In this document: in pieces, positions 242-43,572 of the stretch
How positions within the stretch are numbered: position 1 is the stretch's first letter
Layout: each line of letters starts with the position of its first letter
DNA from: a virus
Direction: 5' to 3' (one strand)
IMG/VR virus record: IMGVR_UViG_3300021300_000004
Length of the DNA: 56,593 bases
Program-made: the position numbers and the translations under genes
Notes under the pieces: generated by a model
Database searches by the model: none
The model's input: only the letters and a program-made list of their open reading frames with translations
What the model was told of the DNA's origin: nothing

Positions 242-2236
242 TTAAATCACCTTGTTTTTAATATTTTTTTTAACATTACTCAATGCAGTATTTAAAATCT
301 CTTTACTATTCTTTAAACCTAATCCATAACAGATGACACCGATTTCATGTTTAATGTCAGATAATAACAAATCATCAACACTGGTTAAATCATACTGTTT
401 CATTTTAGCAATAATCATATTCTCAGCATCATTCAAAACTTGCATCTCTGCATCAGACATGACACTTTCCAAAGTACCGGCAGTTTCCGGAGTCAGACCA
501 ATAGTTTCTAATGCATTGCAGTAAATACGGATTGCACATTCAGCATCAGTTTTCACCGCAACATCTCGCAGTTCACATTTTGCTCTTTCAATTGTCAAGC
601 GTTCTAATGCTCCAAGGTCACGGGCAGTGATTGGTTTTGCAGCATCAGATTGCAATGCCGCTTGCCTTGTATTCACATAAAAATCAACTAATAATTTTTT
701 AGCTGACTCATCAAGTCGTGGAAATATTTCCAGTTTTGCATAAGTTACATATTTCTTAAACAATTCTGGTTCAATAATATCAACATCATCAAGTAGATCA
801 TGTTTATTCAGTAGACTTGTTGCAAGTTCGGTATCGTGTTCAACTTCAATCTTATCATTCAAAGCAAATACTAAGTCGAACCTTGACAATGTTGATTCAG
901 GAATATTGATTTGTTCTTTGGTGTCTTTGAACTTATTAAACCTGCTGTATTTTGGATTGGCAATTGCAAGTATACTTGTCCGTGCAGTCATAGTTTGCAC
1001 TAATCCTGCTTTTGCCGGACTTACACTTAGCTGCTCCATCGGTTTATTCAAACTCTTTTGAGCACCTTTACTTAACTTGTCAAACTCATCAATACATAAC
1101 AGACCAGTATCTGCTAAGACTACACTTCCTGCTTGAAGTGTCCAAGCACCAGTCAGTTCGTCCTTGACTGCACTTGTGGTTAGTCCTGCTTTACTGGTGT
1201 CCGCACCATCAATGTCAATGAACTTCGGAACCCTTTTCTTTAATGCAGTAATGATTTGAGATTTACCAATACCAGGGTCACCAATCAATAATATGTGAGT
1301 GGTCCATCTGTCCATTGTTTCATGTTTAAAAACATCTTGGTCTGGTCTGTAACCTTCAAACAATTGCAAGACAAGACCCTCTTTAACAGTTTCATATCCC
1401 ACGATTTCAGGTGCAATGCTTTTAACTAATCTGTCATAAATATTCGGTTCTTGACTGAGTTTAATAATCTCTTCTTTATCCTCCTCAGTTAAACGATAAT
1501 CCTCAAATGCATTATTTACAGGATTAATATTATGCAGATTAATCAAAAATTCAAAGTCATTTTTCTTATTGGTTTTATCAGTTTGTTTCACTTGAAATTC
1601 ACCAAGTATATCCACAACATCACCCGCTTTGAGTTTATGCTGAGGACTTGCCAAATAATCTTGCATGTAACCTTTGAACTCCCTTGTATTTCCACCAGTT
1701 CTTAGTTCTAATGGTTCCTCTAATTTAACATACCTGTAATTACGGAACTCACTTAACTCCTGATTCAAACGGAATGACCGACCACCACACTCAGGACACA
1801 ATGAAGGTTCCACGAGAATATTATCATTAATATCAATTTGAATCAATCTCATGCAACTACGACATTCAAAAGTAGCAGTTTTCAGACCAGGTGTTGGGTC
1901 AGTAATGTTTTTAATCATTGCTTTTGCAGAAATAGTATCTCCGGCATAACTTGCATCAAGGTCATGCAGTAATGTGTTCGGTGGCACATCTTTGATTTTA
2001 ATTGTTATCCATGTTTTAGGATTGTTTTTAATATTGATTTCTTTTTCTACATCAAGGATAATGTTATTGTAATTGTCAATGTCAAAAAAATTAAGATTAA
2101 TGGAATTGAGGAAGTAATCATTTAGCAAAGTATAATCTACATCTAACCTTGCTGGTCCTTTCAATTCCATTAACTCTTTTTTATGATATTTTTCTATATA
2201 TTCAAGAAATACTTCATTTGGTTTTAGTTTTTTCAT
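242..2236 (-). CDS. mcm: MCM replicative helicase
   Basis: Zn finger CRSC..CPEC, Walker A GDPGIGKS, Walker B LCIDEFDK, arginine finger LSRFD. Confidence 0.97.
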   Translation of the reverse strand: MKKLKPNEVFLEYIEKYHKKELMELKGPARLDVDYTLLNDYFLNSINLNFFDIDNYNNIILDVEKEINIKNNPKTWITIKIKDVPPNTLLHDLDASYAGDTISAKAMIKNITDPTPGLKTATFECRSCMRLIQIDINDNILVEPSLCPECGGRSFRLNQELSEFRNYRYVKLEEPLELRTGGNTREFKGYMQDYLASPQHKLKAGDVVDILGEFQVKQTDKTNKKNDFEFLINLHNINPVNNAFEDYRLTEEDKEEIIKLSQEPNIYDRLVKSIAPEIVGYETVKEGLVLQLFEGYRPDQDVFKHETMDRWTTHILLIGDPGIGKSQIITALKKRVPKFIDIDGADTSKAGLTTSAVKDELTGAWTLQAGSVVLADTGLLCIDEFDKLSKGAQKSLNKPMEQLSVSPAKAGLVQTMTARTSILAIANPKYSRFNKFKDTKEQINIPESTLSRFDLVFALNDKIEVEHDTELATSLLNKHDLLDDVDIIEPELFKKYVTYAKLEIFPRLDESAKKLLVDFYVNTRQAALQSDAAKPITARDLGALERLTIERAKCELRDVAVKTDAECAIRIYCNALETIGLTPETAGTLESVMSDAEMQVLNDAENMIIAKMKQYDLTSVDDLLLSDIKHEIGVICYGLGLKNSKEILNTALSNVKKNIKNKVI

Positions 2237-2271
2237 GAATATATAACCCCCAATTTTACATTAAATCCTTT

Positions 2272-2808
2272 TTATTCGATTTTTACTTGTTTGTTATTAA
2301 CACGGACTACATAGAAACTGTTAAAACTAAATGTACCGTTTCTTTCAATGTTTTGAATGGCCATGACTTTTAAATTACCAATGAAATCAGTAAATTGTTT
2401 CAGATTCACATTCCTGAATACATTTTTACCTTTGGTGCTGCCTTCATTTTCAAGTTCAAGAATGGATTGTACAAGGTCAAATAATACACTACCTTTAACA
2501 ATACGGTCCACTTTGTAATCTGGTTTTTTCAAGTTAATGTTAATGTCAAGATATTGCTCTTCCTCATCATTTACTAATACTAATCTGATTTTGTGGACTG
2601 TTTTTTCTTTTGGGTTGCCGTGGTCATCAAATTCGTTTTCATCTGTAAATGTTGAGGTTAAAATACCGCTAACTTGTGGTTTTCCAGTAAACACTTCTTT
2701 ATTGGATAAATCTTTTAATCTGTATCCTGCGTATCCATCAGGGATTTCAATCATTTCCTCATAATCCATATCTAATGTAAACATACTTGTTGGTTCATCG
2801 AAACTCAT
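2272..2808 (-). CDS. Hypothetical protein, possibly OB-fold ssDNA-binding
   Basis: Beta-rich 178 aa between SSAP-like gene and MCM; function inferred from context only. Confidence 0.35.
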   Translation of the reverse strand: MSFDEPTSMFTLDMDYEEMIEIPDGYAGYRLKDLSNKEVFTGKPQVSGILTSTFTDENEFDDHGNPKEKTVHKIRLVLVNDEEEQYLDININLKKPDYKVDRIVKGSVLFDLVQSILELENEGSTKGKNVFRNVNLKQFTDFIGNLKVMAIQNIERNGTFSFNSFYVVRVNNKQVKIE

Positions 2809-3278
2809 TCTAATAATCCTCCTTCAACTTTCATTTGAACTCTTTTATTGTTAATTAAATCATTAATGATGACTAATTTGTCTTTGTATTTTTTAATCTC
2901 CTCATTCGCAGTATTGATTTTATCCTCAAACTCCTGTAAATGTGGTTTCATTACGGCATCTTTATCTGCAATAGTTGGTTTTGTGGTAATGTTTAACTCT
3001 TTTTTAAAATCAATGGTTCTTAATAACTCATCTTTTTTAGCTTTTAAATCTTGTTTTGTCTTAAACAAATCTTTTTCTAATGGATTTTGTTTTTCAAACA
3101 TGATAAACATTTTTTCATACACTAAATCATCAAGGGATAAGTTAAAAATACTTTTCATGATTCCCATTTCTTTTGCACTTTCTGAGATTTCATACTCAGG
3201 AATTACAATCATTTTTTTCTGATCCATTTCTACAACAATTGGCTCAGCATCTTGTTGCAGGTCTTTTTTTTCTGTCAT
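2805..3278 (-). CDS. Coiled-coil hypothetical protein
   Basis: Heptad-like K/E/L pattern; SD GGAGCTGA; overlaps next gene by 4 nt. Confidence 0.7.
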   Translation of the reverse strand: MTEKKDLQQDAEPIVVEMDQKKMIVIPEYEISESAKEMGIMKSIFNLSLDDLVYEKMFIMFEKQNPLEKDLFKTKQDLKAKKDELLRTIDFKKELNITTKPTIADKDAVMKPHLQEFEDKINTANEEIKKYKDKLVIINDLINNKRVQMKVEGGLLE

Positions 3279-3360
3279 ATCTTGTCAGCTCCATTTTTTT
3301 TATATTAAAAAAATATTATTAATAGACCAAAAGAATGGTCTAAAAATAAACTTAAAAATT

Positions 3361-4038
3361 TTAATCATTTTTGAAGGAAGGCATCTCCTCAGCAGGTGTT
3401 GCATCATAACCTGCCATTTTCATAATCCAACCAAGTGCCATACGGTACGCCTTACCCAATGCACGGGTTTGTGCCATGCTCATCATGCTACTGGTGTCTT
3501 TTTGAAATCCTTCTTTGGTTGCTGATGCCTCAGTCTGAGACAATACAGTTCCACCAACGATTTCACCATTTTCCATGATAGGATTACGGTACAAGGTTGC
3601 CCTTGCTTTGTACCCTTTGATTCTACCTTGCTTGTCAAGTATTTCGTCAATGACTTTTGTCACTGGTACGATGCCTAAAAAGGTTCCTAGGACTTCCCAA
3701 CCCTCAGTTAAAACATAAGGTTGTTTAGGGTCTTTTTTATTCAATCCGTATTTTACAAGTTTTTGTGTTTCAATGACATCTTTTAAGCAGTCTGCAACAC
3801 CTGTTGCAATACTTACTTTTTGTCTCATTGAAATTTCCGGATTTAATATTTCATAATCTGCTAATGCACGAGCATTTTCAGTTACTGGTGCAATTGCAGT
3901 TTCATTTACATCATCATCAGTTTTTTCAATTAACTCCTCATCAGATACAATTTCAACATCGTAACTTTCAACTTTCTCATCTTTTTCACTGATTTTATCA
4001 GCAGTTACAAATACTGCATCATCATCATTAAAACTCAT
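3361..4038 (-). CDS. Putative single-strand annealing protein (Rad52/RecT-like superfamily)
   Basis: MAQTRALGKAYR...GYDATPAEEM pattern resembles phage SSAP families; in replication cluster. Confidence 0.55.
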   Translation of the reverse strand: MSFNDDDAVFVTADKISEKDEKVESYDVEIVSDEELIEKTDDDVNETAIAPVTENARALADYEILNPEISMRQKVSIATGVADCLKDVIETQKLVKYGLNKKDPKQPYVLTEGWEVLGTFLGIVPVTKVIDEILDKQGRIKGYKARATLYRNPIMENGEIVGGTVLSQTEASATKEGFQKDTSSMMSMAQTRALGKAYRMALGWIMKMAGYDATPAEEMPSFKND

Positions 4039-4042
4039 ATGC

Positions 4043-4216
4043 TTAATCTCCTTGTAATTCTAAAATGTCATCAATACTGTGTAATAAACTTCTTAAAGTA
4101 TTTGCTTGTCTTGCAGTATCCTCTTGTAGTTTATTAATGCTTTTTAATTTTAATTGAGTTTCTTTTAACTCTTTTTTCACTTCTTTTTTAACAGATTCTA
4201 ATCTTTCAATATCCAC
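4043..4216 (-). CDS. Small coiled-coil protein (57 aa, not in ORF track)
   Basis: GTG start, MDIERLESVKKEVKKELKE..., fills the gap between neighbours. Confidence 0.65.
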   Translation of the reverse strand: MDIERLESVKKEVKKELKETQLKLKSINKLQEDTARQANTLRSLLHSIDDILELQGD

Positions 4217-4466
4217 TTAAATCACCACTCATTAAATCATTCGGATAACTATTTCCTAACTGGAAAACCCATATGCAGATAAAGAACAATGTTACTAATG
4301 CTAATAATAAAATAAAAGTCCAGTTAAGTCCTTCAAAGTTTAATGGTTCTTTCTGCTTATGCAATGAATTTACAGGTTCCAATTTCCTTGGTGAGAATAA
4401 ATTAATCAGTAACAGATAAATCAATTTAAAAATCATAATTCCATCTCCAAATAAAATAACACCCAC
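4206..4466 (-). CDS. Small membrane protein
   Basis: Hydrophobic WTFILLLALVTLFFICIWVF segment. Confidence 0.65.
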   Translation of the reverse strand: MGVILFGDGIMIFKLIYLLLINLFSPRKLEPVNSLHKQKEPLNFEGLNWTFILLLALVTLFFICIWVFQLGNSYPNDLMSGDLSGY

Positions 4467-4491
4467 AACATTTTACCATCAACAATAAAAC

Positions 4492-4917
4492 TCATGGACT
4501 CACCATTTCATAATTCGGAAATAAATCGGATAATTCCTTGTGCCTCTGAAAGTAACTGACAAAATCATAATCAACTCCATCAGTAAAATCATTATCCTCT
4601 GCTTTGATTAGTTCTTTAATAAATCTGTCTTTCAGTTTCTGAAATCCAACTAACCATGCTTTACCTTTTCTCCATTTAATAAAACCAGTGTCAGACTCTT
4701 CACACATATACATCAAAGGTTTTAAATCTTTATGCACATATGCAACAAATCCTTTTCTTTTACGATTACTATATACTAAAACAGTATCATTGTCAGGATT
4801 AACATAAATAATACGGTGTTTAGTATTTCCTTTTGCAACTCTTATGCAACCATCATGATCAAGTATGCCATGATAGTTTTCTTTAAATGAGTTGCTGTTT
4901 TTTGCAACTTGTGTCAT
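4492..4917 (-). CDS. Hypothetical protein
   Basis: 141 aa ORF with SD AGAGCTGA. Confidence 0.7.
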   Translation of the reverse strand: MTQVAKNSNSFKENYHGILDHDGCIRVAKGNTKHRIIYVNPDNDTVLVYSNRKRKGFVAYVHKDLKPLMYMCEESDTGFIKWRKGKAWLVGFQKLKDRFIKELIKAEDNDFTDGVDYDFVSYFQRHKELSDLFPNYEMVSP

Positions 4918-5089
4918 GTTTTATCAGCTCTTTAAATTCTAAATCCTCAATATCCATTGCGGATATTGTTGAGGTTTTTTCGTAGTCTAATTCATCTAAG
5001 TATGCTTCTATTGTTCCCTCAATGATTTCATCAGGAGTATATACAATAGGAGGTTCCGGAGGAGCACTATAATACCAGTCATCAGTCAT
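4883..5089 (-). CDS. Acidic hypothetical protein
   Basis: Likely start MTDDWYY at 5089 after GAGGAG. Confidence 0.55.
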   Translation of the reverse strand: MTDDWYYSAPPEPPIVYTPDEIIEGTIEAYLDELDYEKTSTISAMDIEDLEFKELIKHDTSCKKQQLI

Positions 5090-5102
5090 GATACGGGTCT
5101 CC

Positions 5103-5207
5103 TCAATCTTTTTTCTGGATTTTAGGTTTGAGTATCCTGTCCAGTTGTTTTTTCTGGTCTTGTGTGATAAAGTAACCACTTTGACCTTTGTAGTTTATCT
5201 TTTTCAT
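5103..5207 (-). CDS. Small basic protein (34 aa), first gene of leftward operon
   Basis: MKKINYKGQSGYFITQDQKKQLDRILKPKIQKKD preceded by GGAGTG. Confidence 0.55.
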   Translation of the reverse strand: MKKINYKGQSGYFITQDQKKQLDRILKPKIQKKD

Positions 5208-5317
5208 AATTGGTCGCACTCCCTAAAAATTTATTTTAGGTTGTTATGATTAATATTTCTCATTTGAGTTATATTAATCTAATTATTATTTTTGTATTTA
5301 TAGTATATATATTTGAC

Positions 5318-5339
5318 TATTCGAATATTGGAATATTCA
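5318..5339. promoter_or_regulatory. Putative operator in divergent promoter region
   Basis: TATTCGAATATTGGAATATTCA; 18/22 identical to 18553-18574; tandem GAATATT. Confidence 0.5.
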
Positions 5340-5397
5340 CATAATAATACCATTTAAATATACTAATATACAAATATTAATATATGGAAGTGATTAT

Positions 5398-5550
5398 ATG
5401 AGTGATATAGATAAAATAACAATAAGAGTTCCAACGGAACTAAAAAAAGAGCTGCAAATAATTGCAATACAAAATGACACCAACATGTCTGAAATAATCA
5501 AGGAATTATTAACAGACTATGTTAATAGTAAACTATATAACAAACAATAA
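5398..5550 (+). CDS. RHH (CopG/Arc/MetJ-type) regulator, probable repressor (50 aa, not in ORF track)
   Basis: MSDIDKITIRVPTELKKELQIIAIQNDTNMSEIIKELLTDYV; SD GAAGTGA; TTTAAATA box; divergent from replication operon. Confidence 0.85.
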   Translation: MSDIDKITIRVPTELKKELQIIAIQNDTNMSEIIKELLTDYVNSKLYNKQ

Positions 5551-5889
5551 CCTAAAAATAGTAACAAGGTTATTATTATGAATTGGGTTAAAATTGTTTG
5601 CAAAGGTTTATTCATATTTTCATTGTTTGGTCGCACTGTAATATAAATACTCTTTTTCTAAATCATATTTTATACCAATTTCACTTTAATAATCTGGAAA
5701 GGATTATGTAATTTGAAAAAAACAACTAATAAAAGATATTACATGTTTTGTCAGCTCTAAAAAAGAAACATATAACTATTTTTTTAATAGTTTTTTTTCT
5801 TTTTTACATACCCTTTTTTTTATCCTGAAATATTTATCACCACCATATACTCTTATTTTTTCACATCATCAATATAAAACATCATTGAG

Positions 5890-5908: not shown

Positions 5909-7045
5909 TTATTCATCAAAAATATACCACTCCTTAATGTCATCAATGTCTTTCTGCATCTTATCAAACCGTTCTTTCAACTCAATATTCTCTTGCTTAA
6001 TAAGTAAATACTCGTCTGAATAAACATCAATCTCACGGACATCAGTTAAAATAAGCACACCTTCTAATGCTTTAACATACTCATTCCTTAAAGTTTCCTC
6101 ATCTTCAAAGAAATATACATCATCAACACTGCCATTTGACTTACCTTGCAAAACATTAACAAGATACCTTGACATACCATATTTTTCCAACTGCGATGCA
6201 TGAAACTTCCTGAGCATATGACCACGGAATCGATTAAAAGTTCCTGCTTTACCAAGTCCAAGTGCATTATTCAAATCATTAAACTTCACATCAAAATGAC
6301 TGTTACTAATCTGAAACAGTTTGTCTGATGGTTTCAATAATGGTCGATGGTATCTTTTATTTCGCTTATCCCTTACTCGTAAATAATTAATGATTTCATT
6401 CACTGCCTCAGGACTGCAAAAAGTAATGAAATATTTATTAGTCTTACTCCGGCGTAACTTAAATGCAGGTATAATATTCTCTTCACATTCACTCAGTATA
6501 TCCAATGCAGTATTCATATCATCTGATTGATGATAAGGATAAGTCGCAGTAATAAAATCTTGAATGGATAAACTTAAACAATCCACACGACTCATGCCGG
6601 TGCTGACCAGGAATAATATTAAAGCTCGCATCTTGGGTTCTGATAATTCAACAGCATCACGGATAATCTGTCTTGTCGGTAAATCATCAGCAGTAATGGG
6701 TTCACTTACATTAGCATTTTTAAGATTCCATGCTGGAAGTTTACCGATTTCAATTTCATGATGACTGTAAAAACCTTTGACTGCTTTCACATATGATTTT
6801 GCACTGGATAGTTTCATATGGTCTTTGCAGTAGATCATGTAATTAATGAGTCGATGTTTTAGTTTTCTGCGTTTCCATCTGATGCCGTCATCTTCCTCAG
6901 TATCTGCTTCCATTATCAAGTCATGCAAACTTAGTCCTTGAAATGTACTGTAATGATTTAACATGTATCTCATGCTTTTTTCTGTTTTTTTTCCAAGTCC
7001 TCTTGTTGTTATATATTCTTGCAAGTAATATTCATTTGATGTCAT
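5909..7045 (-). CDS. Tyrosine recombinase/integrase 1
   Basis: STGMSR (R), HMLRKF (HxxR), LQGKS, C-terminal catalytic Tyr region DDVYF. Confidence 0.92.
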   Translation of the reverse strand: MTSNEYYLQEYITTRGLGKKTEKSMRYMLNHYSTFQGLSLHDLIMEADTEEDDGIRWKRRKLKHRLINYMIYCKDHMKLSSAKSYVKAVKGFYSHHEIEIGKLPAWNLKNANVSEPITADDLPTRQIIRDAVELSEPKMRALILFLVSTGMSRVDCLSLSIQDFITATYPYHQSDDMNTALDILSECEENIIPAFKLRRSKTNKYFITFCSPEAVNEIINYLRVRDKRNKRYHRPLLKPSDKLFQISNSHFDVKFNDLNNALGLGKAGTFNRFRGHMLRKFHASQLEKYGMSRYLVNVLQGKSNGSVDDVYFFEDEETLRNEYVKALEGVLILTDVREIDVYSDEYLLIKQENIELKERFDKMQKDIDDIKEWYIFDE

Positions 7046-13177: not shown

Positions 13178-13900
13178 TTAATTTTTAATAACCCCTTCTT
13201 TTTCCATTTCCTGAAACAACCAATCACGATATTTTTGAGGTGTTAAACCTTTATTTTTGAATGAATACTTAATTAATTCATTATCAGGTTTAACAATTAA
13301 AAAATCATATACTTTATCCGCATCTTTTTTATCAGCATAAGTTCCGAAGGAATAGTTGCTATTATTAATCCTCTTATAAACAGTATATTTTCCATTATAT
13401 AGGTAAATATGTAATTTTGCAGTTACTTTTGAGTTTGAGTATTCAATACCAAATTTATTATATAATTCTTGTTTATATTTACTGGCAACTACATTTGAAT
13501 TGTTTTTAGATAATTCAAATAACTTCTCATACTCTCCACCCGAATAAGCAAGTAACTTATCCTCAACCTCATCAATATGCTCAGGTGAATGACTGGAAAA
13601 ATCTAAATCATCAAAATATAATCGTATACCATTTCTTTGTTTTACTCTTTTAAAATTATCCTTAGGATTAACAGTTTCCTCAAAAGGAGTATGCATAAGT
13701 TCCGGTTCGTCCAAATCAATAGTTAAATAACCTTTATCAATCATCAAATTTTCAAGAAACTCATTAATAATGAGAGTTAAGGAACGAGGATTATCCTCGT
13801 CCATCTCATATTTATCCAAAGCATCAACAGTTTCCTCATTGATTCTAAAAGTGTATTCTTTTAATCTCATTCCAATCATGCCCTTGTTTATATGCTTCAA
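13178..13900 (-). CDS. DNA-binding protein, N-terminal RHH-like plus C-terminal AP2-like domain
   Basis: YTFRINEETVDAL...LTLIINEFL; YTVYKRINNSNYSFGTYADKKDA. Confidence 0.55.
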   Translation of the reverse strand: MKHINKGMIGMRLKEYTFRINEETVDALDKYEMDEDNPRSLTLIINEFLENLMIDKGYLTIDLDEPELMHTPFEETVNPKDNFKRVKQRNGIRLYFDDLDFSSHSPEHIDEVEDKLLAYSGGEYEKLFELSKNNSNVVASKYKQELYNKFGIEYSNSKVTAKLHIYLYNGKYTVYKRINNSNYSFGTYADKKDADKVYDFLIVKPDNELIKYSFKNKGLTPQKYRDWLFQEMEKEGVIKN

Positions 13901-14978
13901 ATGCCATATTCATTACATTAACATACCAATGATAATATAATGGAGTATATCCGTAACCTTTTTCATTATTCCTTCTTTTTAAATCATGGAATAATCCACT
14001 ATCTGTTTCTTTTGATGTATTCACATAATGATATAACTTAGGTAAAAATTCACCAAAAGTTTCCAAATCGGTTTGTGGAGATATATTCATATACAAAAAT
14101 ACACTGTAAAATTGAGTTATATTCAAAGTTGATTCAGATTTCACTAAAATTTTATTTAATGAGTCCAAAGTCTTTTTAACTTGTGTTACCCAACTTTTAG
14201 TTAATGGAACTACACGATATAATTCTAATTCTTTTAAAAGTTGATTATTATTATAACAAGTAACTTCCTTGCTGTATTTTTCATAATCTCTAATAAACAA
14301 GCACATTCTGGACAAATAAGTATATTCATTATATCTGCGTTTTCCGTTAATGTAATCCCAGATGTTATGTTTTTTCAATGGTTCTAATGTTTTCATTAAT
14401 GGACTTCCTTGCATTGCATGGATTCTTTCACCAATTTCTACATTAACACCGCTGCTGTTTCTTCTGATAAAGTAAGTGATTGCTTCCTCATCAGACATGT
14501 TTTCTAAGATGTCCACAGATATTTTTACACCCATTAATGCACCGTAAATAATAGGTTCGTCTTTCTTTAAATCGCTGCAAGTTTTACCTGTAAGTTCAGG
14601 ATTATATACTCCGTTGATTTTGAAAGCATCATCATTTACAAATGGTGCAATTGCGGTTAATACTCTTTGTTTACCATCGACAAGTTCGTAATCGTCATTG
14701 CCAAGTTTCCTTACTGTAATTGGTGGGACATTTTCACCACCAAATCCTATGATGGTTTCCATTAGTTCTTTTTTGATTGGTAATGTCCAGATTTCTCCTC
14801 TTTGATATGGTGCATCATGTAATTTTCCTTGTTTGACCAGTAGACTTATGTGTTGTATTGTCCATTGGCCTTGTGTTTTATGCACGGTTGAGTTCATTTG
14901 TCCTGCTATTCTTATTTGCATTTCGTCATGAGTTTCGATATGTTTTTCTTTGTTTTTTTTACGACTTTTTTTTGACAT
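13845..14978 (-). CDS. DUF262 (ParB/Srx-fold, GmrS-like) domain protein
   Basis: PYQRGEIW and ELVDGKQRVLT motifs. Confidence 0.8.
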   Translation of the reverse strand: MSKKSRKKNKEKHIETHDEMQIRIAGQMNSTVHKTQGQWTIQHISLLVKQGKLHDAPYQRGEIWTLPIKKELMETIIGFGGENVPPITVRKLGNDDYELVDGKQRVLTAIAPFVNDDAFKINGVYNPELTGKTCSDLKKDEPIIYGALMGVKISVDILENMSDEEAITYFIRRNSSGVNVEIGERIHAMQGSPLMKTLEPLKKHNIWDYINGKRRYNEYTYLSRMCLFIRDYEKYSKEVTCYNNNQLLKELELYRVVPLTKSWVTQVKKTLDSLNKILVKSESTLNITQFYSVFLYMNISPQTDLETFGEFLPKLYHYVNTSKETDSGLFHDLKRRNNEKGYGYTPLYYHWYVNVMNMAFEAYKQGHDWNEIKRIHF

Positions 14979-17319: not shown

Positions 17320-17395
17320 AGGTTGGTATGGGATTTGAACCCATGATATACTGCTTACAAGACAGTCGCCTTATGCCTGACTAGACTAACCAACC
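17320..17395 (-). tRNA. tRNA-Thr(UGU)
   Basis: Cloverleaf GGTTGGT/ACCAACC, D stem GTCT/AGGC, anticodon loop CTTGTAA, T arm ATGGG-TTCAAAT-CCCAT; U73; no encoded CCA. Confidence 0.93.
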
Positions 17396-17432
17396 ATTAA
17401 AATAAAAAAAGTATAATAAGGAAAAAAAGTCA

Positions 17433-18491
17433 TTAAAGAGTTACATTATAATCTTGACCATAGAAATTCAAGTTAATATTAATTGTAAACTCCTCATGCT
17501 TAATTTCCTTATGTATCTTACCAATAGTCACATTATCCATAACAGACATGTAAACTTTCTTAAACTCCTCAGGATTAGTTTTAATATAAGTCGCATGTAC
17601 AATATCACGACTACGACCTTGCAACAAGTCAATATTATCCTCACTTAAACCAATATTGGACGCATTAAACTTACGCAGAGTATGTGGCCTGAGGAAACGA
17701 TAACTACCCTTGAAACCAAAGTTTAACTCATCATTAATATTGTTAAAATGATAAGTAATTTGCCTTGTTGTGAAATCCCATAAACTATCACTAAATTTCA
17801 AGTTCTTGTCTTGCTCTTCACAAATCTGCAACCGTAACAGTAACCATTCACTGATTGCATGTGCTGCCTCAGGTGTGCAAAAAGTATAATAATTCTTTTT
17901 GGTTTTCTGCCTGTACAAGTAGAATGTCGGGACAACTGGTTCAATACTACCATAAATTTCCTCAATGATTTCATGTAATGTTTCACTGGTATAGTATCCT
18001 GCACAAGCATTAATGAAATCACCAACAGTCATATTAGCACATTCAGTTCTGCCGGTCCCAGATGATGCCATGAATAAGATTAATGAACCGACTCTTATTC
18101 CAGCAACTTCAAAAGCCATTCCGATTTGTTTTTTTGTAGGTAAATCAAAATATGTGGTTTCGATTTTATCCTCAGATTGTATCGGTGGCATTTTTGGGAG
18201 TTCAACATCAAAATGATTATAGATTGTATATATGGATTGCATATGTGCTTTTATGGTGCTTGTTTTCAGTCTTGTTTCTGTTTGCAGATGTGTTCTGAAT
18301 TGCAGTAATCTGTTTTTGATGCTTCGGCGTCTTTTTTTGATTTCAATGTTGTTTTCCTCATCAATGGCCTCATTGATTAAGTCATCAAGGGTCATATCGT
18401 AGTATTCTGTGTATTTTTTGATTGTGCTGCGGTATCCCTTGATGGTTTCAGGTTGCAGATTTCGTTCTGTTATAAATCTTTCAAAGTACAT
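17433..18491 (-). CDS. Tyrosine recombinase 2 (candidate adhesin-tip invertase or integrase)
   Basis: SSGTGR, HTLRKF, LQGRS, HATY; paralog of 5909..7045; abuts silent cassette and tRNA. Confidence 0.92.
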   Translation of the reverse strand: MYFERFITERNLQPETIKGYRSTIKKYTEYYDMTLDDLINEAIDEENNIEIKKRRRSIKNRLLQFRTHLQTETRLKTSTIKAHMQSIYTIYNHFDVELPKMPPIQSEDKIETTYFDLPTKKQIGMAFEVAGIRVGSLILFMASSGTGRTECANMTVGDFINACAGYYTSETLHEIIEEIYGSIEPVVPTFYLYRQKTKKNYYTFCTPEAAHAISEWLLLRLQICEEQDKNLKFSDSLWDFTTRQITYHFNNINDELNFGFKGSYRFLRPHTLRKFNASNIGLSEDNIDLLQGRSRDIVHATYIKTNPEEFKKVYMSVMDNVTIGKIHKEIKHEEFTININLNFYGQDYNVTL

Positions 18492-18542
18492 ATTTTATCA
18501 GCTCTATCTTTTTTTTATGTACTTTATGATTTTGTATGTACT

Positions 18543-18587
18543 AATATTTAAATATTCATATATTGGAATTATCAACACTGAATATTT
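18543..18587 (-). promoter_or_regulatory. Promoter/operator region of recombinase 2
   Basis: 14-bp palindrome AATATTTAAATATT containing a TATA-like box; 9-bp IR AAATATTCA/TGAATATTT. Confidence 0.55.
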
Positions 18588-19112
18588 TTAATACAAATAT
18601 ACGAACTCCACGATATTTATCTCTATCGTGGGCAAGAGTATTCTTTAACAAAATCAAGTGGAAGTGTATTAAATCAAGCATTCGACTCCGATGTTGCATT
18701 AACATTCCCATCTCATTGTGAAATCAGTTTTGAAATCTATTCTACTGGTGGAACATCAAGTAATGAGCATAGATTGTTTATTCAACCGAATAGTCAGTAT
18801 GTAGTTGGTACTCAATCATCAAAAGCATTATTTGTACAAAATCATGGAACAAGTGGTAGTAATGGTGCTTTTGGTTATCGTAACTCTTCTACTGCCTCAT
18901 TCGGAAGCAATTTTAGTGGTTTTAGCATAAATGAATATCATGCTGTTAAGTTTGTGCGAAATGGAACAAGTGTAACTTGTTATTTCGATGATGCTCAAAA
19001 AAGAAGTGGAACAATCAGTTTCCTTGATGATTATACTGATTGGAACTTCTACTTCCACATATGGAACAATGGAACAATGAAAATAAAGAATATACAAATC
19101 AAAGAACTATAA
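18582..19112 (+). other. Silent alternative C-terminal cassette of tail adhesin (inverted, no own start/SD)
   Basis: Frame open from 18582: IYELHDIYLY...KNIQIKEL mirrors TYTLEDCHYY...KNIKIKPL of the expressed tip; stops interlock at 19107-19112. Confidence 0.85.
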
Positions 19113-21425
19113 TGGTTTGATTTTTATGTTCTTCAACCAGTTATTTGAATTTCCTCCACTTTCAATATGTATCAATTTCGCTAATGTAATGTTTTGGTCG
19201 GAAACAGTCATTACAGAACCATTATTCAATGAATACTGGTATTCACTACCAGTATAAATGAATTTAATGTTATTTTCAGTATTTAATTGAATATTAGTCG
19301 GATAAGAATAAGTGGTATTACTTGACTTGTAAACAATTAATCCGTTCCCACCAGCCCTTGCATATTGTCCGACAAGCATTCTATCATTAGAAGCATTTCC
19401 AATATCCAAATAAGGCATACTTGAACTATTTGTTCCTTGTTTAGAATTATATTCTAACTGGAATGCTCCATTAGGCAAAGGAATATTCAAAGTAGTGCTT
19501 GAAGTAGAATATGTATTGTCATTGTAATAATGACAATCTTCGAGAGTGTATGTTTCTGATGAGAAAAAAGTACCACTAAAAGCGTAAAAACCAATATCAC
19601 CAACACCACCGGAATTATATAATTTATCCGCCTTACCAGTACCATCAGTATTAACAATATCAATTAAATTATGAAAGACATAAGTTCCAGATGCAGAAAT
19701 AACACTTGAAAAATCAAAATCATATGAGGATAAATCTTCATAATGAGTATTATCATAAACATCAGTATAAATCAAAAGATTATCCTGAAACTTAACATCA
19801 AGAATATTACTAGCAACATCAACAATATACCTACCATTATAATAAACAGTAAGACCTGTATCAGTCAATTTAAGATAACCTACATCGTCGCCCACTTGAA
19901 CACTTGTAACTGACGCAGACTCACGAGAAATCTTAAAAGCATCACCCACTACACTCGGATAATGTGAGTTCTGACTGGTCCAAAACTCCACAGGTTCACC
20001 ACTTGCTGCAACAGGATTGTCGCTGTTATCAAGTAATTCTACTCTTAAAGTTGCAGTATCCGCATCATGGTGTGAAAGAATGGTTTTTCCATTGACCTCA
20101 GTAATACTGCATTTTGTGTATGCGGGATTAACTGTAACCGGACTTGAATAGGCACTGTTATATGTTGCATCACCTGCATAATAAGCTCGGAGTGTATAAC
20201 CAGCATAAGATGTTATCATATCTGATATTTCACCACTGCTATTTGTTAAAGTTGATACGATAACATTATCTGATGAATCAAGGACTTGCAATGTAACGCC
20301 GGATATTCCCACACCTTCATATTTTATTGATGCTGCAATGTCAATAATGTTAAGACCGGCACCTCTCCTGCTTGCAGATAATGTTAATACAGGTATTTTC
20401 TTTGAAACAATTAGACTAACCGTATTTGAAGTTAAATCATTTGGATTCTTACAAGTAATATTATGATTTCCTGAAACATTGCTTATGAAATTGAATGTTG
20501 CAACACCGTACTCATTTGTGTTACTGGAACCAAGTAATGTTTCACCATCATAGAAACGAATTTCCTGATTATCCACGGGTATTCCAGTTTCATCAAGATA
20601 TGTTGCTGTTAAAATTGCAGTTTCACCAATAGTTAAATTTGAAATGTTACTGGATAATATCAGACTTTCATTTACTTTGATGATGTGTTGATCATGAACT
20701 ATATTGACTGTTGCATCAAAACCAATAACATGATCCAAATTCAATGTTTCAAATGGTATGTTTACAGGTGTTCCATATTGTAAGGTAATTATTAATGGTG
20801 TTACTGTTATGTTGTCTGTACTGGCATCTGTGCAGACATTAACATCACTGATACTGTATACTTTCATTTTTATGGTGTATGTACTGTTTCTGAACCGTGG
20901 ATTGATTAATGTTATTGTTCCGATGTTGGTTAATGTTTCATTTGTGATTAGTATTCCGTTATCCACGATTGTTGTACTTTCAAGGTTAAAGAGGTAATCT
21001 GCATATTTTCCATGCACGGTGGAATTGTTGATTTGGATTTCCTCTTTGAATGGGTAATTTTGTTTTAATCTGTATACTAATGCGTTGAATTCATTAACTG
21101 TTAATGTGTCCTCGATTTGTTTATAACCAGTTAATTTTATTAGTCTGATAAACTCATCATCGTCTGAAACGAAATCATAATAAGTTTCCTCAGTATTTTT
21201 ATTTGCGATTATGCATTTGTTTTCCAGTATTTTATCATCATTGTTGCTTGATGTGATTTTTTTACAATAGAATAACGGATAAATCCTGTAAATACTGTCT
21301 GTAATGATTGTTTCAACTATGAATAAATCACTGGATAGTATTTCTGTTAAACTTAAATTTATGTTTTTTACATTTAATCCGTGGAAATATTGTAATTCAG
21401 GATTGGTTATGTCTGTAAAATACAT
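19107..21425 (-). CDS. Tail fibre / receptor-binding adhesin with Ig-like repeats and variable C-terminal domain
   Basis: Ig-like segments LTATYLD...VDNQEIRFY..G and LRAYYAGDATY; last gene of baseplate operon. Confidence 0.8.
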   Translation of the reverse strand: MYFTDITNPELQYFHGLNVKNINLSLTEILSSDLFIVETIITDSIYRIYPLFYCKKITSSNNDDKILENKCIIANKNTEETYYDFVSDDDEFIRLIKLTGYKQIEDTLTVNEFNALVYRLKQNYPFKEEIQINNSTVHGKYADYLFNLESTTIVDNGILITNETLTNIGTITLINPRFRNSTYTIKMKVYSISDVNVCTDASTDNITVTPLIITLQYGTPVNIPFETLNLDHVIGFDATVNIVHDQHIIKVNESLILSSNISNLTIGETAILTATYLDETGIPVDNQEIRFYDGETLLGSSNTNEYGVATFNFISNVSGNHNITCKNPNDLTSNTVSLIVSKKIPVLTLSASRRGAGLNIIDIAASIKYEGVGISGVTLQVLDSSDNVIVSTLTNSSGEISDMITSYAGYTLRAYYAGDATYNSAYSSPVTVNPAYTKCSITEVNGKTILSHHDADTATLRVELLDNSDNPVAASGEPVEFWTSQNSHYPSVVGDAFKISRESASVTSVQVGDDVGYLKLTDTGLTVYYNGRYIVDVASNILDVKFQDNLLIYTDVYDNTHYEDLSSYDFDFSSVISASGTYVFHNLIDIVNTDGTGKADKLYNSGGVGDIGFYAFSGTFFSSETYTLEDCHYYNDNTYSTSSTTLNIPLPNGAFQLEYNSKQGTNSSSMPYLDIGNASNDRMLVGQYARAGGNGLIVYKSSNTTYSYPTNIQLNTENNIKFIYTGSEYQYSLNNGSVMTVSDQNITLAKLIHIESGGNSNNWLKNIKIKPL

Positions 21426-42517: not shown

Positions 42518-43483
42518 TTATATTTTGTTTAATATGTTTTCTTTGATGTGTAATGCAATAGCTTTCATGAGGTTTGGCGGCACACTATTTCCAATCCGTT
42601 TCCATTGTGCAGATGGTTTACCAATCCATTTATAATTTGGTGGGAATGATTGCAATAATGCTGCCTCATCTGAGTTCATGATGCGGTTTCCCATTATCAT
42701 TTTCCCATATCCTTGAAATGTTATTGTTGGACATGGTTTGTTTTCATTGATTTTTATGTTGTTAAAGTAGCTGCCTTTTGGGTGTATTTTTCCAAAGTTT
42801 TCACCTGGTTTTACTTTGTCAATATTGTTCAGAACCCATTTTGTTGTTGGTTTCAGATATGGGTATTTGCTTTTGAATCCTTTTAGACATTCTTTTACTG
42901 TTTTTGGTCTTGTTTGTGGTTTTGGGTGACTTGCCGGTATGCCTAAATCTTTTCTTACGCCTATGAATATCATTCTTTGCCTTGATGTTGCACAATCATA
43001 GTACATTGCATTCATTAGCTTTGCTCGTACATCGTAACCTGAGTCTTTTAGTTGGGTTAGTATGTCTTTAAAGATTAGTTTCATGTCTCCTTTCACCATT
43101 CCGGATACATTTTCCATTACGAATGTTTTTGGTTTTAAACCTCGTAGTAATCTGATGTATTCATTGTATAATTGGTTTTTAGGGTCGCAAAATTCACGAT
43201 TGCCACTAATGCTGAAACCTTGGCATGGTGGACTGCCATCAAATAATTCCAATTCACCAACACCAATGCCTGTAATTTCCAATACCTTATCCACAGATAA
43301 GTTATGAATGTCACCATGATAAATAGGAGTATCAGGGAAATTCAAATGATAAGTTTCAACTGCATGATTATCCATTTCCACAGCTAATTTAACATCATAT
43401 CCTGCCTGTTTATAACCGCAACTACTGCCTCCACAACCACTAAAAGTGGATATAACTCTCGGTTTAATTTTTTGGGAGTTCAT
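42518..43483 (-). CDS. DNA (cytosine-5) methyltransferase
   Basis: FSGCGG, GSPPCQGFS, ENV, RQR, GNSVPP; start MNSQK at 43483. Confidence 0.96.
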   Translation of the reverse strand: MNSQKIKPRVISTFSGCGGSSCGYKQAGYDVKLAVEMDNHAVETYHLNFPDTPIYHGDIHNLSVDKVLEITGIGVGELELFDGSPPCQGFSISGNREFCDPKNQLYNEYIRLLRGLKPKTFVMENVSGMVKGDMKLIFKDILTQLKDSGYDVRAKLMNAMYYDCATSRQRMIFIGVRKDLGIPASHPKPQTRPKTVKECLKGFKSKYPYLKPTTKWVLNNIDKVKPGENFGKIHPKGSYFNNIKINENKPCPTITFQGYGKMIMGNRIMNSDEAALLQSFPPNYKWIGKPSAQWKRIGNSVPPNLMKAIALHIKENILNKI

Positions 43484-43572
43484 ATCCACACCTTGGACAT
43501 GTGATTGATTCAACAGTGTCAGCTATTGACTCATCATATTCAGGTTCGTCATCTGGAATTTCAAAGTAACTT

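Follow-up and report, generated by a model that had tools for sequence, protein, structure and literature searches.

At one locus of the viral contig analysed here (the window, 56,593 nucleotides (nt) long, IMG/VR record IMGVR_UViG_3300021300_000004), the gene of a tail adhesin runs tail to tail into an open frame on the opposite strand, and the gene of a tyrosine recombinase, called recombinase 2 in this study, lies just beyond that frame. The 56.6-kb window is a contig of complete size from a myovirus-like archaeal virus and encodes a tail sheath, baseplate J, large terminase, MCM helicase, C5 methyltransferase and the pseudomurein endoisopeptidase Pei. The presence of Pei identifies the host as a methanogen with a pseudomurein wall, and infection of gut Methanobrevibacter-type methanogens is part of the explanation that we propose as the best one. 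The closest genome compared, G001, belongs to a genus with other members that have related proviruses. All listed genes of the window are on the minus strand, with the sole exception of the plus-strand frame at 18582-19112. The features of the locus are as follows (aa, amino acids; pLDDT, predicted local distance difference test; Ig, immunoglobulin).

17433-18491, minus strand: recombinase 2, an XerA-like two-domain tyrosine recombinase and the proposed invertase (profile alignment to XerA 5hxy; NCBIfam XerA, E 1.6e-8)
18492-18584, no strand: spacer that separates recombinase 2 from the silent head, without any difference among the four module alleles
18585-18617, plus strand: silent head, an inverted and degenerate copy of the junction (20/33 in the head alignment), with the core AAATATAC at 18595-18602
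18603-19112, plus strand: silent tip B, a start-less and promoter-less alternative lectin-like tip (no start before codon 65; homology; pLDDT 91)
18603-19532, no strand: variable and putatively invertible module, two convergent tips swapped as a block (BLAST boundaries against L041/L043 at 18602/18603 and 19532/19533)
19107-19532, minus strand: expressed tip A, a putative lectin-like receptor-binding domain, stop codon included (AlphaFold2 pLDDT 81.5; concanavalin-A-like lectin matches)
19533-19565, minus strand: expressed head, 33 nt at the junction that code F-S-S-E-T-Y-T-L-E-D-C and are conserved wherever a stalk-tip junction was examined, with the core at 19548-19555
19566-21425, minus strand: constant part of the adhesin, an N-terminal anchor and Ig-like stalk, residues 1-620 (Pfam Big_1, Big_3_5, Invasin_D3)

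The adhesin and its two tips

As the preliminary description of this locus had it, the adhesin occupies 19107-21425 of the minus strand. It is 772 aa long, and its last ~147 aa form tip A, which begins E-T-Y-T-L-E-D-C-H-Y-Y and ends K-N-I-K-I-K-P-L. The plus-strand frame is open from 18582 to 19112 (176 codons) and reads I-F-L-I-Q-I-Y-E-L-H-D-I-Y-L-Y to K-N-I-Q-I-K-E-L. About 60 codons had been said to pass without a start, and the earliest in-frame ATG, GTG or TTG is indeed a TTG at 18774, codon 65. The frame is the longest on its strand, though antisense frames of 161-162 codons also occur, and the case for tip B therefore rests on homology and not on the length of the open reading frame (ORF).

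When tip B alone was used as the query, 117 proteins were matched at E<=1e-3 among 1.8 billion representatives. Most of the long matches carry the tip as the C-terminal domain of Ig-domain adhesins of 400-880 aa, and many of the short ones are ORFs of ~170 aa that begin at the domain boundary, i.e., other cassettes. Sixteen Ig-domain adhesins of 412-414 aa bear tip B at 74-87% identity (90% clustering). The expressed tip of P0120 is 87% identical to tip B in amino acids and 93% in nucleotides, with the nucleotide similarity beginning exactly at the ATAC of the core, and the homology of the expressed tip of L025/L028 to the silent tip of the window starts right at the same ATAC.

Tips A and B are themselves homologous, weakly (BLASTP E 9e-5, 24-27% identity), and their resemblance exceeds what chance would give. 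Structure prediction of both, which the preliminary description had suggested, gave the same fold: the AlphaFold2 models (pLDDT 91.1 for tip B and 81.5 for tip A) match the concanavalin-A-like lectin/glucanase sandwich, with Foldseek hits at probability 1.00 and TM-scores of 0.5-0.64 for both tips to a levanase carbohydrate-binding module (CBM; 8a9y_E), galectins and LamG domains. Further structural matches are CBM66 and the CBM of a phage Dit protein. Judging from these models, it is plausible that both tips are glycan-binding receptor-recognition domains. Taken together, the identification of the plus-strand frame as a silent, start-less alternative tip with the same fold as tip A is supported.

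Heads, proposed crossover core and tails

Every stalk-tip junction and every silent cassette opens with a 33-nt head coding F-S-S-E-T-Y-x-L-E-D-C, codon for codon when aligned on the Tyr codon, and similarity to the adhesins of relatives stops at the expressed head. Each head of the window holds the proposed core AAAYATAC, as AAATATAC at 18595-18602 and as the complement of AAACATAC at 19548-19555. It had been claimed that a crossover in this core would fuse the silent tip in frame, and the junction predicted from it, S-S-E-T-Y-E-L-H-D, occurs naturally in the expressed P0120, which reads S-S-E-T-Y-E-L-H-D-I-Y. Matches to the expressed head at >=20/33 are found in just 9 of the 56,560 plus-strand 33-mers of the window, and the best one in the scanned stretch 18300-19000 is position 18585, in register with the frame. 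At their other ends the two tips meet in the tails, an 18-nt inverted repeat (19086-19103 and 19116-19133, 16/18 complementary), and the CTATAA at 19107-19112 is Leu-stop on both strands, so that the two stops overlap; the matching tails and the interlocked stops had both been described correctly.

The head pattern is found in 2 of 103 genomes of the host genus, both times inside a proviral adhesin gene, and is therefore not a host chromosomal site. The idea that the crossover site mimics a host dif/XerA site was dropped for the same reason. In run X1, which is from the source sample, a 44-nt unitig over window positions 19533-19562 was found at depth 31 (the virus itself is at 11.6), consisting of 30 nt of the expressed head between other sequences, and its flank contains a second core that faces the expressed head. 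It thus seems that the source sample also contains a second and more abundant pair of cassettes placed head to head.

Module alleles in near-identical genomes

Identical recombinase 2 proteins are encoded by at least 24 contigs (ENA, JGI, Logan). Isogenic genomes have tips C, D or G in place of tip A on a constant adhesin part that is 99-100% identical, and the four module alleles (M1-M4) and other modules compare as follows, with the identity between expressed and silent heads given for each.

M1 (window): tips A + B; heads 20/33
M2: tips C + E; heads 26/33
M3: tips D + F; heads 27/33
M4: tips G + H; heads 26/33
G039 provirus: heads 30/33
IMG/VR virus 3300028833: heads 27/33
IMG/VR virus 3300021295: heads 26/33

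The absence of a long inverted repeat noted in the preliminary description thus holds for the window and fails for its relatives, where heads agree at 26-30 of 33 positions. All eight tips of M1-M4 are different, and the sequence flanking the module differs at 0-2 positions over 3 kb to its left and is invariant over 2.1 kb to its right. Silent tips B, E and H are joined to the same half-site of the slot at the same ATAC. Swapped and extra tips at the Y-x-L-x-D junction, which were to be looked for in relatives, were both found. Contig ends also gather at the heads: three assemblies of M3 break there, one as a 53.6-kb contig that starts at offset 0, one ending at offset 925 of 927, and one starting inside the silent head. 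Run X5 has two other continuations beyond 18602, and in run X10 the stalk is joined to tip C while tip A faces another head. These alternative joints indicate that single samples contain more than one version of the module and that the versions branch at the heads.

Recombinase 2 and its relatives

A tyrosine recombinase had been placed ~100 bp outside the segment; the gene begins 90 nt from the silent-tip cassette, and the spacer between them presumably holds the recombinase promoter. In a profile of 28 homologues aligned to archaeal XerA 5hxy, the catalytic Arg, His-x-x-Arg and Tyr are in place, with G-R-x-E-C as the box I Arg, P-H-T-L-R-K as His-x-x-Arg and G-R-S...Y as the Tyr box, which has Arg in place of the usual His. 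The NCBIfam XerA match covers the N-terminal half, Pfam gives only a weak SAM_4 match, and the build is two-domain and Xer-like, without an arm-binding domain. The family comprises 619 proteins at E<=1e-20. A second and distinct recombinase, recombinase 1, is encoded at 5909-7045 in the non-structural region. Genes of the recombinase 2 family gave 2-9 matches per host genome (G014, G023, G039, G086, G012), including three adjacent copies on G086 contig C117. Beyond the 3′ end of recombinase 2 lies one further feature.

17320-17395, minus strand: tRNA-Thr(UGU), neighbour of recombinase 2 (ARAGORN; present in the window group)

The order of adhesin tip, inverted start-less tip and recombinase recurs in L030/L031 (recombinase identity 76%), L033 (72%), L036 (69%), L045, L046 and L053, and in one IMG/VR virus with the recombinase two genes further on. 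In all, homologues of recombinase 2 stand beside tip cassettes in at least seven virus lineages; L047 has the recombinase and lacks the silent tip. A small gene absent from the window lies between silent tip and recombinase at L045:1572-1814, L046:1094-1384, L036:5607-5981 and L033:5708-5929, and its product, which looks ribbon-helix-helix-like by eye, may be a regulator or directionality factor. Contig L066 (IMGVR_UViG_3300031867_000290) has at 1821-5668 an adhesin with tip 1, an inverted tip 2, a forward tip 3 and an inverted tip 4; no recombinase was found on this fragment, which is 69% complete.

The largest array has at least seven start-less cassettes of ~115 aa, two on the plus strand and five on the minus strand, at L078:1429-4157 and also in L075, L077 and L079. 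It adjoins P0256, a recombinase 46% identical to recombinase 2, in a Methanobrevibacter provirus. Each of the seven L078 cassettes is headed by a 13-15-nt repeat coding Y-S-A-N-N, and the first head lies directly 3′ of the stop codon of the recombinase. In L075 a distinct integrase of 419 aa is encoded at the end of the provirus. From its sequence, this Methanobrevibacter provirus appears to contain a complete shufflon, and this anatomy ties the recombinase 2 family to cassette arrays rather than to integration.

A metagenome scan with recombinase 2 returned only three loci. An IMG/VR scan with the adhesin as query returned no relatives, and the region, the adhesin and tip B all lacked a match in an annotated phage collection. 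Elsewhere in the window, the MCM helicase, a protein with a GmrSD-like N-terminal domain and the C5 cytosine methyltransferase are encoded at 242-2236, 13845-14978 and 42518-43513.

Proposed tip switch and alternative explanations

The architecture brings together a homologous tip without a start, inverted copies of the junction, a dedicated recombinase unlike an integrase and arrays of head repeats, and there is no sensible reading of it other than activation by DNA rearrangement. On balance we favour a receptor-binding-tip switching module driven by recombinase 2. In such a switch, recombinase 2 would pair the expressed and silent heads and exchange strands in or near the AAAYATAC core, and ~0.95 kb (18603-19547) would be inverted. 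Tip B would then be fused in frame to give a 795-aa adhesin with the junction given above, and the glycan or receptor specificity of the virus, hence its host range, would change.

Several observations weigh against this reading. No flipped module was seen in the contigs that share the identical recombinase 2, where each of the four alleles is in one orientation only; the contigs aligned from the P0161 lineage (5 of 17 on record) and from the P0256 lineage (6 of 9) are colinear, and no strand-changing joint was found in the Logan contigs of four runs (X1, X4, X5, X10). The variation in orientation that the preliminary description had pointed to as a check therefore did not appear, and of its recombinase-driven switch the silent tip, the core and the synteny have held up, while inverted molecules and flipped modules are missing from the contigs. 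In an all-against-all comparison of silent and expressed tips, no tip was in both slots and none was common to two alleles. The heads of the window are the weakest of the modules compared, and head identity within modules (26.0) is not significantly above that between modules (25.0; 466 of 5040 permutations reach the observed sum). The silent slot of M3 differs to the left of the core, so the breakpoints are not all at one position, and tips are mosaic, with silent tips in L053 (7437-7664) and L041 (M2) that are 94% identical over their initial ~200 nt and wholly different thereafter; variable breakpoints and mosaic tips make a pattern that fits homologous recombination. A sister lineage (9 contigs and G001) has kept only the last ~35 codons of recombinase 2 with the silent tip intact, as would be expected if the loss is recent or if the tip does not depend on the enzyme. 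Lastly, the closest annotated relatives of recombinase 2 are provirus integrases of Methanobacteriales viruses (30-34% identity), and a tRNA gene lies 3′ of the recombinase both in the window (Thr(UGU), 37 nt away) and in L030 (Trp(CCA), 46 nt away, L030:7106-7181).

The absence of flips is weak evidence because contigs drop minor variants and a consensus reports the majority orientation. A single orientation would be maintained if the tip suited to the local host is selected, as happens in lytically grown Mu. IMG/VR scans for the two predicted inversion junctions found no match and are uninformative, as the control head pattern gave five loci, none of them in this virus group. Since no flipped module has been seen, we infer, rather than observe, that recombinase 2 acts on the heads, that the reaction is inversion and that inversion still occurs in this genome. 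As separate observations, the only joint listed for the Logan contigs, from 17320 to 19076 in run X4, was discarded as a rearrangement, being an AT-rich match at tRNA-level depth, and the deletion in the sister lineage (L048:7356-8064; G001 contig C24:1-230, L002) joins the silent head to a head-like AAGATAC inside the recombinase gene.

Much of the opposing evidence is what would be expected of a frozen relic or reservoir, that is, a module that was once invertible and whose tips now change only by homologous recombination or gene conversion between related co-infecting viruses, for which the conserved heads and tails supply short homology, with the silent tip kept as raw material and comparable to silent pilS or vls cassettes. 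The weak heads of the window, the lack of a flip in any contig, the mosaic tips with breakpoints that vary within the heads and the lineage that lost recombinase 2 and kept its silent tip all point this way, as does, though not decisively, a ratio of nonsynonymous to synonymous substitution of 0.68 for tip B against its expressed homologue. We nevertheless think this rather unlikely, as recombinase 2 is intact, identical across those contigs and syntenic with cassettes down to 46% identity. A relic also sits poorly with flanks that are free of imported polymorphism as far as the heads, with three different silent tips joined to one half-site at one ATAC, and with head-repeat arrays that abut the recombinase stop codon and look purpose-built. 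It is less probable still that recombinase 2 is an integrase, or a second one, that uses the neighbouring tRNA gene as its attP and lies beside the cassette by coincidence. The two tRNA neighbours, the annotated integrases among its homologues and the 2-9 family copies per host genome would suit such a role, but in five other lineages the cassette is present and the recombinase has no tRNA neighbour, the non-structural region of the virus encodes recombinase 1 as well, and the L075 provirus keeps its integrase apart from the recombinase 2 homologue, which abuts the array. Furthermore, none of the host tRNAs of five genomes is a match for the viral one, the tRNA-Thr genes of the window and G001 share only 83% identity, and in every contig viral genes flank the tRNA to its left and right.

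We give very little credence to the plus-strand frame being an ordinary, independently expressed gene, e.g., for a second fibre or a chaperone. It does have 176 open codons, and gene callers place shorter ORFs there; however, 64 codons pass without a start, and a start at codon 65 would cost a third of the fold. The called starts lie 17-65 codons into the silent tips and differ in every one of M1-M4 (17, 30 and 60 in the sister alleles), and the frame would be the only plus-strand coding frame among listed genes that otherwise lie on the minus strand. The frame also opens with a copy of the final stalk residues at the stalk-tip junction, which would have no function in a free protein, and its close homologues are the in-frame C-termini of adhesins.

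Returning to the tip switch, a more far-reaching version can be put forward only tentatively, in which the recombinase 2 family is a previously undescribed shufflon-type clade, widespread in gut methanogen viruses, and, besides inverting, may swap whole modules between co-infecting genomes. Module exchange at two inverted heads, as in recombinase-mediated cassette exchange, would explain how four unrelated tip pairs came to stand in one place without flanking polymorphism.

Isolated viruses of gut and rumen methanogens are very few, and next to nothing is known of the receptors that they use or the hosts that they can infect. If the tip switch is real, exchangeable lectin tips linked to a recombinase would be a main determinant of which methanogen strains are infected, which would also explain why the tip locus is the sole hypervariable spot in otherwise identical genomes. 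Tips and heads would then offer a handle for host-range studies and for phage-based control of methanogens.

Comparison with known systems

The preliminary description likened the locus to the G loop of phage Mu. In Mu, P1 and p15B, the invertases Gin, Cin and Min are serine recombinases that depend on a Fis-bound enhancer, and chaperone genes (U/U′) lie in the invertible segment (these systems are summarised in PMC6109161). The layout is the same, with a constant N-terminal fibre part outside, alternative C-termini inside in opposite orientation, crossover sites in the coding junction and a recombinase gene next to the segment, although the host-range switch is only a proposal here. The class of enzyme is not: the window has a tyrosine recombinase and no chaperone gene, and it is Rin-, shufflon- or phiCh1-like rather than Mu Gin-like. 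A Pfam search of 18 window ORFs found no resolvase domain. Diversity-generating retroelements, another means of varying adhesins, are not indicated either, as no direct repeat of the tip was found in the window; Pfam reverse transcriptase families had no match in 15 of the 16 window ORFs of at least 300 aa (those at 17433, 19107, 21427, 23844 and 25651 and ten others), recombinase 1 (5909-7045) being the one left out.

Two features of shufflons are seen in this family: the recombinase lies beside the cassettes and is distinct from the integrase of the element, and a repeat heads every cassette in the orientation of that cassette. In place of observable alternative arrangements, we found only replacement of whole modules and contig breaks at the heads. 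No such module in methanogen viruses was reported in the literature searched, which included the papers on MSTV1 and on gut archaeal viromes; the compendium of Medvedeva et al. 2023 was outside the search. Novelty is narrower than was first assumed, given that a tail-fibre switch by a tyrosine recombinase is known in archaeal viruses: in phiCh1, phiH1 and ChaoS9, inversion of tail-fibre genes driven by Int1 has been shown experimentally (PMC6471424; for the phiCh1-type inversion, Rossler et al. 2004 as cited in PMC8371274). As here, these are tailed viruses of archaea with a tyrosine recombinase separate from the integrase (int2), and inversely oriented fibre sequences exchange the expressed C-terminus and alter adhesion, the same scheme as we propose. 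The differences are that int1 lies inside the invertible segment, between two near-complete fibre genes, whereas the recombinase of the window lies outside the segment and only tips of ~145 aa are duplicated, tail to tail with overlapping stops. The hosts are halophiles, unrelated to gut methanogens, and no phiCh1-type record was among the recombinase 2 tblastn matches at E<=1e-5.

Judged by layout, the window module comes closest to the Rin shufflon, found in prophages of Bifidobacterium (Bb423phi1 and its relatives), where Rin has been described as the first tyrosine invertase encoded by a phage (PMC6109161). Both are in gut viruses and have a tyrosine recombinase without an arm-binding domain at one end, distinct from the phage integrase, and the constant N-terminal part of a receptor-binding protein at the other, with start-less C-terminal cassettes in both orientations, each after a short repeat. 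Unlike here, the Rin host is bacterial, its rix site is an 11-bp repeat of non-coding type and not a 33-nt coding junction, and reads from prophages and virions revealed inversions. Only two cassettes are present in the window, and the likeness meant here is one of layout. If the proposed switch holds, it would extend the adhesin shufflons of tyrosine recombinases, so far of plasmids, bifidophages and haloviruses, to a new group of archaeal viruses with a recombinase clade and a coding crossover element of their own.

In the R64 shufflon, Rci swaps the C-termini of the adhesin PilV at repeats in the coding junction. The sfx sites of R64 are 31 bp long with a conserved 19-bp arm (PMC11852207). 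This system, with a tyrosine recombinase adjoining its cassettes, resembles the array of seven or more cassettes beside P0256; R64 is a plasmid pilus system and not a virus, and here too the likeness meant is one of layout.

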